Assembly (NCBI RefSeq): GCF_013122565.1
Contig: NZ_CP053258.1
Source: Escherichia coli
Lineage (GTDB): Bacteria > Pseudomonadota > Gammaproteobacteria > Enterobacterales > Enterobacteriaceae
Reading direction: 5' to 3' (one strand)
DNA: 64,000 nucleotides
Numbering within the stretch: position 1 is the first letter of the stretch; every line of letters starts with the position of its first letter. Positions 39,301 through 42,300 of this stretch are shown piece by piece. A program made the position numbers.

Positions 39301-42300
39301 TAATATGAAGAATAATTACAAAAAGGCACTAGCCGATTTACGAAACTTATTAGATAATCTGCATAAAATCATGCCTGGTGATGATGTAAAAGATTTTCAA
39401 CTTAATGATGAAACTATAAAATATATTATAGATAATGTTTTGTACAATAGAAAAAAAGATATAGCTAGTGAAATAGATACTGATAAAGTGAATTTCATGC
39501 AGAAAATCTATAATAACCTTGATTGGTATAGACATTACGATGAAAATGGGAAAATAAAAACATATCGTTCTATTAATCCAAATGGCAATAGATTTTACTT
39601 TGATTTTAATGATTTGCAATTTCTTTACTACGATCATGAGAAGAAGAATGGTCCTAAAGTGGAGGATTTTGTGAAAATGCAAAATGTTTTTTTAACGGTG
39701 AAAAACTTTAAGGCAGAAGAAAAAATAAACCAAGAGAAATATATAGAAAAACCAGCAAATGTAGCCCATGAAATTGCTTCATTCACTAACATTGAACAAT
39801 ATGTACTGGGAGTAATTAAGGATTATAATAATGATATAAGTGAAGGGTTTACTTATAAAATGAAAGATTTAGCCGGGCTTTATGACGCAAGAAATGATTG
39901 TGTCCAAAGAAAGAGTTATTTGGAAAATTATATTTTTACTGTAAATGATAATAACAAAGAAAGTCAAGCCCAAATTAATAAAATCAGAAATGAACTAAAA
40001 AAAATAGATGAAAATATTGAAAAAATAAATAATACAATCCGGAAACTTGATGGTGAAATAGAGGGGTTTAGGCTAAGCCAGCAACAAGAAAACAGACTTA
40101 ATGTTGTAATTCAAGGTATCAATCGTTGGCTAAAAGAAAATCAAAATATGGTGGAAGCTATTAAAAAGATTGTTCCAGAGGTAATAAATAAAAATATAGA
40201 AAGTATAGAGAAGATAGATAAAACGGTTCGAGTTGTCAATGATGAAACAGAGGAATTTGAGCTAGAGTATGAACAAGATGGAGTTAATTATGTAATTCAA
40301 ATATAGAAGACATAGAAAAAATGCACCGATTTCTTAATGATGAAACAGCGGAGTTTTATCTAGATATCAACAAGAATAGGGAGTTAATGATGTAATTCAA
40401 GGTATCAGTCGTTCCTATAACAATGAGGTTATACGAAAAGACGCTTACGCATCAGTAATCTGGTGCACTTTAATTAAACCAGTGTCGCTGATGTGTAAGC
40501 GTTGACGTTGGGAGACGATTATATTGTTATAGCACTGCTACGCCCTTTCCAGACGGCGTATAAGAGTGCAACATGTTGAGTTTTCCGAGCGAATGGTGCA
40601 TTTTACTAACCGAGCCATTTGAATCAACCAACGCAATAAAAAAGACTGGAATAATAAGCCTGTATTTATTATTCATCGCAATCGCACTCTACGGTTTTAT
40701 CCTGCAGAAATGAGACTACTTCCAGCGGTTGTGGATTATCCCTGGGCGATAGTCATAGTCTGGTGTCAGGATTCACAAATGACCTGTTACCTGACATGGA
40801 TATAAACACAACATAGAGTGCGGTAGTTAATCTGAATCATCTATTTTTCGGCTACACAGCACAAAACAACATTATTGATTCTTTATAAGAGAGAATCTCT
40901 CCATCATTTTTATATAAATCATTATTAAGAAAATCCAGAAGCTCTTGCCTTACACTATAAATATTGACTTTTTGGTCAACCAACGACAGTAATATATCCT
41001 TGATACCTTTTAATTTCATATTTCTATCAGATATTGTATTAAAAGTGAAGATGATATTACGTTTATTACAACTGGAGAACCAATATTTTAGAGTATTATT
41101 CGTCCACTTTGTCGGTGTCTTAATTAGTTGCGCTGTTGTTGTTTTTACATTATTAAATGTAGAACCGCTAAAATTTGTCCCGACGCATGAAATAAAATTC
41201 ATTTCTGAATTGTCAAAATTGCAATTCTTTATCTCACACATATCCAGATTAACATCATGAAATGTCGAACATTTCATGTTGGCATGTGAAAATAAACATG
41301 CAATAAACGTTATATATTGCAACCTGGAATGACAAAAAGATTTATTTTTAAAATCAAAACAACAGGTTTTTTTTATTTTGAAATTGTTATTATATCTGCA
41401 ATGTAAAGAAATCATGTTTTTTATTAACTGATAACACCATTGTGATGATTCTGGTAATTCATAGGGATGTAAATGGATGTTTTCATCGAATATAACCTGT
41501 GAGTTATGGTTGTTTATTGAAGATATATAGAAGCTATCATTTGTTAAAGCTATGGTTGTGCTAAAATTATAGTGGTGATCAGCGCTCATGAAATCAAATG
41601 TAACAATGTCGTTGTTTCCTTTCTTTTCTTTGTGATATGCTTTTAAAAAAGAAATATTTTCGATCTGTTCATCAGTTAATGTAAATGGCATTTCGTCATC
41701 AAAGAAAGCGTAATCGGCATTTGGGACTGGAATACTCTCAATTGAGCATAGTTTTAATAAAAAAACATGAAAACAATGAAACATGTTTTTATGCATAAGA
41801 GAACTTAATCTCTGTTGTATCTTCTGTAGTTGTCCTTTAGGAAGTAAATGCTGTAAATTTGAAAATGAACCATCTAAAACATATTTATATGTAAAAAGGT
41901 CCTCTCTTGGACCATTTATTAAAAAATCGTCAGACAATTTAGAAAAACGATTGAGATGACATAAATATTCCATTTGCTCCATGTCTATATAGTTATGGAG
42001 AACTGCGTGGTTTGGTGGTGTGCCAATAAGATTATCCATAAATCACCTTGATAAAATTTAATAAAATCTCTTTATTTTAACCTCGACAATAAAAGCGGCT
42101 ATAAAAAAACGCTCATTTTCTGATGCTGCGGTTAACCTGTGGAATGTGCCGTTAACCCCCTAAAAATCGCAAATCCAGGGTGAACACCCTGGGTTAAAAT
42201 GGAAATAATGAGCTATTTTTTACAGTATTCACCGGTAATATAAGTAACACTTGTTGCTAACCTAACTAGCAGTACGGTTAATTAACAACATAGAAGTTAT

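Follow-up and report, generated by a model that had tools for sequence, protein, structure and literature searches.

Two kinds of described RNA structure come closest to the element studied here. Intrinsic and bidirectional terminators between convergent genes combine a stable, G+C-containing stem with a loop of about 3 to 10 nt and a U-tract, and 3'-end protective stem-loops (REP-type stabilisers and the mature ends of Rho-terminated transcripts) are long, stable hairpins in the 3' untranslated region (3' UTR) that lack a U-tract. We analysed a 64,000-nt stretch of Escherichia coli DNA (assembly GCF_013122565.1, contig NZ_CP053258.1; referred to as the window), in which a long imperfect hairpin follows each of two paralogous effector-type genes, espY5 (gene A) and espY4 (gene B), the second copy lying against the convergent core gene yieH. 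Comparison of the two copies with each other and with their relatives in other genomes indicates that the base pairs of this hairpin are kept by purifying selection. We see an even chance that the element is a locus-specific transcript-end stem-loop at the junction between an espY-type effector gene (plus strand) and yieH (minus strand), kept by selection and duplicated together with its module. Most likely it is a previously undescribed, locus-specific example of a familiar structure and not a new kind of element.

The hairpin copies and their parts, in window coordinates, are as follows.

40441..40502, plus strand: hairpin copy A, in the 3' flank of espY5.
40441-40455 (ACGCTTACGCATCAG) and 40488-40502 (CTGATGTGTAAGCGT): outer arms of copy A, separated by a 32-nt spacer.
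40460-40464 paired with 40478-40482: inner stem of copy A, with its apical loop at 40465-40477.
40503..40522, plus strand: tail following copy A, with homology to the stop-codon region of yieH and to its 3' untranslated sequence.
44806..44868, plus strand: hairpin copy B, 57 nt past the espY4 stop codon and 16 nt from the yieH stop codon.
44806-44820 (ACGCTTACTCATCAG) and 44854-44868: outer arms of copy B, separated by a 33-nt spacer.
44825-44829 paired with 44844-44848: inner stem of copy B, with its apical loop at 44830-44843.
44869..44888, plus strand: tail after copy B, made up of the yieH stop codon (44885-44887, minus strand) together with 16 nt of 3' untranslated sequence of that gene.

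The original prediction had described two hairpins with 32- and 33-nt spacers and related tails, the second at the island/core junction beside yieH, and this is what was found; only its coordinates for copy B (44807-44869) were one base too high. The 15-nt arms are near identical between the copies, with a single difference in the 5' arm (G in A, T in B) at a position opposite a T in the other arm. The 20-nt tails, TGACGTTGGGAGACGATTAT after copy A and TGAAGTAAGGAGGCGATTAT after copy B, match at 16 positions. An inner 5-bp stem (CTGGT/ACCAG), missing from the earlier description, is conserved in both copies. Folding, which had been proposed as a check, revealed strong structure at both: copy A reached -31.8 kcal/mol on the plus strand (z -7.5) and -24.4 on the minus strand (z -5.4), and copy B reached -26.9 (z -6.5) and -26.0 (z -6.3), respectively. 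None of 200 shuffles was as stable as the hairpin in any of these four folds. Only one other comparable inverted repeat, with arms no more than 60 nt apart, was present in the window (56543-56588; see below).

In order to determine whether the spacers had diverged while the arms were kept, as had been claimed, the consensus sequences of the A and B copies were compared. No difference was found at 42 stem positions, compared with 18 differences at 52 loop and tail positions (9 of 24 in the loops and 9 of 28 in the tail; Fisher P = 6e-6). Had the stems changed as fast as the loops and tail, all 42 positions would have stayed the same with a probability of ~2e-8. Conserved and diverged blocks alternate along the element (arm, loop, inner stem, loop, inner stem, loop, arm). 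Gene conversion was considered as the cause of the arm identity and rejected, since a contiguous conversion tract cannot explain conserved stems interleaved with diverged loops.

Variation within populations points the same way. Among 38 distinct sequences, and setting aside the naturally mismatched pair, stem variants occupied 7 of 80 site-by-copy-type cells, compared with 34 of 141 outside the stems (P = 0.004). Six of the seven stem variants were C-to-U changes, by which a G-C pair becomes G.U on the plus strand; on the minus strand they would be C.A mismatches. The seventh opens a terminal pair. The one-sided changes from G-C to G.U were seen in six of 21 pairs. Given a random chance of 0.31, at least six of seven wobble-compatible changes would be expected with P = 0.005. 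The same variants, none of them disruptive, were recovered in 28 copies from 15 loci that had been retrieved by BLAST or by protein. In a divergent lineage (L028, 84.6% identical overall), the hairpin is identical at 60 of 63 positions, compared with 77% identity for espY4 and 94% for yieH. The proposal that selection acts on the structure is borne out by stems conserved beyond neutral divergence of duplicates.

The strand on which the structure is used was assessed from folding energies and flanking U-tracts. Over 32 distinct hairpin/flank variants, B copies averaged -29.5 kcal/mol on the plus strand and -29.2 on the minus strand, and A copies averaged -25.9 and -21.6, being more stable on the plus strand in 15 of 15 variants. 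These energies fit a role of the hairpin in both transcripts at copy B and in the espY5 transcript only at copy A. One further feature lies directly beside copy A:

40435..40440, minus strand: U-tract, GAAAAG on the plus strand and therefore CUUUUC on the minus strand directly after hairpin A.

This minus-strand tail, CUUUU(U)CG, is found in all A-type copies and also beside the live yieH of contig L063, which carries a third allele of the locus (described below). Standing after the stem at copy A and in L063, it gives the canonical terminator layout in the yieH sense. The likeness to terminators between convergent genes extends to a stable stem-loop 16 nt and 57 nt past two stop codons and to a G+C-containing stem of -24 to -32 kcal/mol on both strands. 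The difference is that those terminators have short loops, and this hairpin has a spacer of 32 to 33 nt; a terminator scan with a loop limit of 8 nt flagged sub-hairpins only. There is also no U-tract on the effector strand, so the hairpin is not a canonical intrinsic terminator for the paralogs. As regards the terminator suggested in the original prediction, the U-tract layout is present on the minus strand at copy A and L063 and absent from the plus strand, and for the discrete small RNA or recombination site offered beside it no evidence was found. With protective 3'-end stem-loops the element shares a long, stable 3'-UTR hairpin without a U-tract and substitutions that preserve pairing on the mRNA strand. 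It differs from REP-type stabilisers in being locus specific and not dispersed.

From this arrangement we infer both a terminating and a stabilising activity. On the minus strand the hairpin would terminate the yieH transcript 16 nt past its stop codon. On the plus strand it would act as a 3'-UTR stem-loop that shields the espY4 and espY5 mRNAs from 3'-to-5' exonucleases, and it possibly limits read-through of effector mRNA into antisense yieH. Because the espY5 and espX3-espY4 modules were stacked, copy A now adjoins a dead remnant of yieH, and it is copy B that adjoins the live yieH.

Hairpins beside core genes elsewhere offer a comparison. In the K-12 allele, an unrelated hairpin lies right after yieH, in the yieH-cbrB spacer (L003, 2929-2994). 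A 110-nt stretch across it folded at -33 kcal/mol. The cbrB Shine-Dalgarno sequence falls within its 3' arm, and in K-12-type strains this hairpin therefore probably controls cbrB translation. It resembles the island hairpin in its position after yieH and in a weak homology that runs through the tail to TAAGCG in arm 2, and differs from it in an unrelated stem sequence. The apparent extension of core homology into arm 2 was short and gapped in the local alignment and was not relied on. The second case lies in the window itself, at another effector islet:

54277-56463: espL-like effector gene.
56543-56588: hairpin of the second islet, with a 16-bp stem and a 14-nt loop, between the espL-like effector gene and mnmE and 22 nt from the mnmE stop codon.
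56611-57975: mnmE.

Here again an effector gene is followed by an islet hairpin with a 15- to 16-bp stem and, after 16 to 22 nt, a core gene on the opposite strand ends in its stop codon. This hairpin differs in having an unrelated sequence and a shorter loop (14 nt), and with U-rich tails on both strands it looks like a canonical bidirectional terminator. When a query across the 3' flank of the effector gene was searched, only the 766 genomes matching most of its length shared the hairpin; in K-12-type strains, an unrelated hairpin after mnmE takes its place. Both the K-12 hairpin after yieH and the islet hairpin at mnmE favour the view that the core gene needs a hairpin immediately behind it.

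Several observations weigh against a selected transcript-end stem-loop. Compensatory double changes were found in none of 21 pairs. Both copies have the same arm sequence, a pattern also compatible with constraint by a sequence-specific protein or on the DNA. Most loci were retrieved with a pattern that fixes 22 stem positions, and the unbiased subset is small. The low divergence of the hairpin in L028 and L063 may come in part from homologous recombination tracts that enter from yieH and may end where the alleles cease to be homologous. With respect to termination, the minus-strand tail at the live copy B is only a degenerate U-tract, CUAUUCCC, and on the plus strand neither copy has a U-tract, the tail there reading UGA(C/A)GU. 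The 32- to 33-nt spacer between the arms, with its inner 5-bp stem and 13- to 14-nt loop, is oversized for an intrinsic terminator.

The presence of two copies was traced to the history of the locus. Homology between A and B begins ~6 nt before the hairpin (40435 and 44800) and extends beyond the tail as far as the 3' end of yieH, with 76 to 79% identity, and the 57-nt stretch from stop codon to hairpin is unalignable between them. What had been described as a related tail is thus the yieH stop-codon region. The element occupies the 3' flank of both paralogs and is tied as closely to the yieH junction as to these genes. Two core-gene remnants follow copy A.

40519..40628, minus strand: decayed, internally deleted yieH fragment, made of a C-terminal-like piece and a piece resembling residues 106-128.
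40629..40739, minus strand: 111-nt cbrC fragment, 75% identical to K-12 cbrC, at the left end of the espX3-espY4 module.

The yieH fragment shares 15 of 23 residues with YieH residues 106-128 (tblastn, E 4e-8), and its position is annotated as a partial pseudogene in L004. The cbrC fragment sits between this fossil and espX3, at the joint of the two modules, and in strains that retain yieK another, different piece of cbrC lies to the left of gene A. Judged from these remnants, the locus consists of two modules in series, cbrC'-espY5-hairpin-yieH' and cbrC'-espX3-espY4-hairpin-yieH. The core-gene remnants after copy A therefore point to two effector modules, each ending in hairpin and yieH, that were stacked, and the second hairpin exists because the segment with hairpin and yieH was duplicated or stacked. 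The statement that the conserved arms reflect selection "rather than simple duplication residue" was false in its second half: homology extends past the tail into the yieH fragment, which is followed by the cbrC fragment.

Other alleles show how the arrangement varies. Copy A has been lost together with part of espY5 in L028 and in loci labelled E. albertii. With 92 to 93% identity to the window and a B-type hairpin like that of the window, the latter contribute no further divergence. The E. coli contig L063 has a third allele, seen on this contig only, with one strongly diverged espY5-like gene (P0123, 775 aa; 6001-8328) between yieK/cbrC' and yieH. P0123 shares 48% protein and 74% DNA identity with espY5 and is 32% identical to EspY4. 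The L063 hairpin has an A-like 5' flank (~85%) followed by a B-like interior, tail and yieH (97 to 100%), and the switch lies inside arm 1.

Of the alternatives to a transcript-end stem-loop, a regulatory RNA fares best and is still unlikely. The hairpin would then be an RNase III site, a 3'-UTR element bound by ProQ, Hfq or CsrA, or the terminator of a small RNA derived from the 3' UTR. The 15- to 17-bp stem is coaxial with the 5-bp stem and gives a ~22-bp duplex, the size used by RNase III. The bias of the pairing constraint towards the plus strand, clearest at copy A beside the dead yieH, also suits a role in the effector mRNA, as does the co-induction of espY5 and espX3 by SMX-TM (PMC5931665). 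Against it, an Rfam search of positions 36000-47000 on both strands returned no matches at E<=1, promoter-like sites were at chance level (39 found compared with 38.6 expected), and the plus strand has no U-rich 3' tail for Hfq.

We consider it rather unlikely that the palindrome is a neutral leftover, carried along in the duplication without function, its arm identity being due to recent origin or gene conversion. The whole 3' flank was duplicated, including the yieH and cbrC fragments, and copy A was lost from L028 and the E. albertii-labelled loci with no obvious consequence. Moreover, among stem positions left free by the search pattern, 6 of 36 were variant, a density not clearly below that outside the stems. 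The absence of stem differences between copies whose interleaved loops and tails have changed is hard to reconcile with such a residue; in addition, nearly all stem variants are wobble compatible, and the alternating pattern is unlike a contiguous conversion tract.

A DNA-level element, either a boundary or recombination element for module exchange, stacking and deletion beside yieH or a palindromic protein-binding site, is quite unlikely. It would fit arms that are identical between the copies with no covariation, the switch from A-like to B-like sequence inside arm 1 of L063, and the fact that each module, as well as the second islet, ends in a long hairpin, in the latter case abutting a core gene. 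However, the pieces of yieH and cbrC left at the joint are a sign of illegitimate or unequal recombination, as opposed to site-specific recombination at the hairpin, and in L063 the switch merely falls where homology between the alleles stops. The hairpin was never found with any other gene or in other species, and its bias towards keeping G.U pairs on a single strand suggests constraint on RNA and not on DNA. There is no recombinase or transposase in the island, which was reported to be without mobilisation functions by Sankar et al. (PMC2646131). In a broader form of this idea, the yieH- and mnmE-side hairpins would be the functional ends of effector islets without mobility genes, guiding the joining of modules to core-gene 3' ends and serving as a crossover or slippage point for their exchange, stacking and deletion, as in the L063 chimera; we regard this as very unlikely.

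There is next to no chance that the hairpin is an ordinary member of a dispersed family (REP/BIME, ERIC/IRU, BoxC or RSA) or a miniature transposon, since it occupies at most two places per genome, all at one locus, and was found in 1111 of 5426 complete E. coli genomes; moreover, it has neither the GGCCTAC end of REP nor a target-site duplication, and the window holds no further copy.

The searches behind this conclusion covered several collections. In the complete genomes, searched by BLAST, the element was always chromosomal and always at this locus. An exact-pattern scan of one genome per species in 100,044 species gave matches on two contigs of one metagenome-assembled genome only. This genome is labelled Collinsella sp. 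(JAIJJM01; L005, L006), and its hairpin flanks are 92% and 96% identical to window copies A and B; the matches are probably a binning contaminant from E. coli. A metagenome scan yielded 53 loci, every one of them this same locus. Altogether, 101 copies in 71 loci stood in three contexts only: espY5 to yieH', espY4 to yieH, and the L063 chimera. The earlier suggestion to look for other genomic copies has thus been answered: the element is not a dispersed repeat, a class rejected on copy number and distribution. REP/BIME elements occur in hundreds of dispersed intergenic copies per genome and are ~35-nt palindromes ending in GGCCTAC / GTAG, a motif that neither hairpin copy has at or beside it; REP-like matches in the window lie elsewhere, at 29468 and 58012. 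The CTGAT...AAGCG of the arms may be reminiscent of one REP subtype. ERIC/IRU, BoxC and RSA are dispersed, multicopy elements of enterobacterial genomes, and the distribution of the hairpin is unlike theirs.

Two other identities were rejected. An imperfect palindrome of ~60 nt after each gene of a small array recalls an integron attC site, which was excluded on sequence features and context. The attC core motifs RYYYAAC/GTTRRRY are absent from the hairpin: the 3' side of its base reads GTTGACG or GTTGAAG, with a mismatch at the last or third R/Y position, and the 5' side has no matching AAC. Neither an integron integrase nor attI lies adjacent, judging from the open reading frames from 34 to 48 kb. 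Behind copy A come pieces of host genes, and other cassettes were never seen with the hairpin. A miniature transposon (MITE) or insertion sequence remnant was rejected because there are no copies elsewhere and no target-site duplication: the flanks GAAAAG|...|TGACGT (A) and GAATAG|...|TGAAGT (B) contain no direct repeat.

If the transcript-end reading holds, the locus would be a small case study of an H-NS-silenced, horizontally acquired effector islet insulated from its housekeeping neighbour by its own hairpin. The recurrence at the mnmE islet suggests a general rule, by which an islet inserted tail-to-tail with a core gene has to bring an end-hairpin in place of the old one. The assembly of the O157 Z-locus (espY5-espX3-espY4) would be resolved as two stacked modules, both with hairpin and yieH at their end, with fossil yieH and cbrC at the joint. 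The practical value is in annotation of the 3' ends of yieH, espY4 and espY5 and of the pseudogene fragments. The main interest lies in the flanks, as a record of island building, and in the recurring arrangement of an islet-borne end-hairpin; the element itself looks ordinary and of modest interest.

The gene order at the locus is espY5, espX3, espY4 and yieH, followed by adeP.

37667..40306, plus strand: espY5 (gene A; O157 ECs4657/Z5214), 81% identical to cluster P0121.
40852..42039, minus strand: espX3, a pentapeptide-repeat gene (O157 ECs4654/4655).
42322..44748, plus strand: espY4 (gene B; O157 ECs4653), espY4 being the name used in annotated E. coli genomes.
44885..45550, minus strand: yieH (6-phosphogluconate phosphatase), convergent with espY4; NF007854, 441 bits.

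Besides yieH and adeP, the open reading frames from 34 to 48 kb are fimbrial genes and the three genes of effector type. This is the Z-locus already known from O157 (Z5211-Z5214). The O157 tags ECs4653, ECs4654/4655 and ECs4657/Z5214 have been assigned to EspY4, EspX3' and EspY5', respectively (PMC5931665; PMC4048457). Sankar et al. 2009 described Z5211-Z5214 as an ORFan island of 30% GC that is an alternative to bgl, with Z5211 and Z5214 being 50% homologous (PMC2646131); the hairpin is not described there. The literature that names EspY4, EspY5 or Z5211-Z5214 covers the identity and expression of the locus and does not mention the hairpin; in the Sakai RIBO-seq paper, none of these genes is listed. 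The espY family is tiny, with only three full-length clusters at 50% identity, namely EspY4, EspY5 (P0121) and P0123, among 1.84 billion cluster representatives. All three are located at this locus, so distant homologues offer no independent test of the hairpin.

Some further features of the genes were noted. The yieH of the window (44885-45550) is a mosaic and strongly diverged allele relative to K-12-type yieH (L003, 2995-3660), with 30-nt blocks ranging from 47% to 97% identity; among island-bearing strains, yieH is 90 to 100% identical. The sequences suggest either a joint import of the island with its yieH flank or a linkage of long standing between the two. The end of espY5 (40012-40413) contains tandem repeats of ~98 and ~189 nt that run beyond the stop codon at 40306. 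Its C-terminal region and stop position vary among the other strains examined, and the length of the C-terminal coiled-coil region seems variable. In strain 23CRST031 (L068, 9211-10177), an IS903B-like element interrupts espY4, and both hairpins are intact.

Finally, a box, AAATGAGCGWWWTTT, was found ~65 to 130 nt upstream of espY5, espX3 and the espL-like effector gene, at 37550-37564 (plus strand), 42104-42118 (minus strand) and 54211-54225 (plus strand). With at most one mismatch allowed, three matches were obtained compared with 0.17 expected. The box is a candidate common promoter or regulator site of these effector genes. A weaker copy with two mismatches lies upstream of espY4, near 42206 (plus strand).

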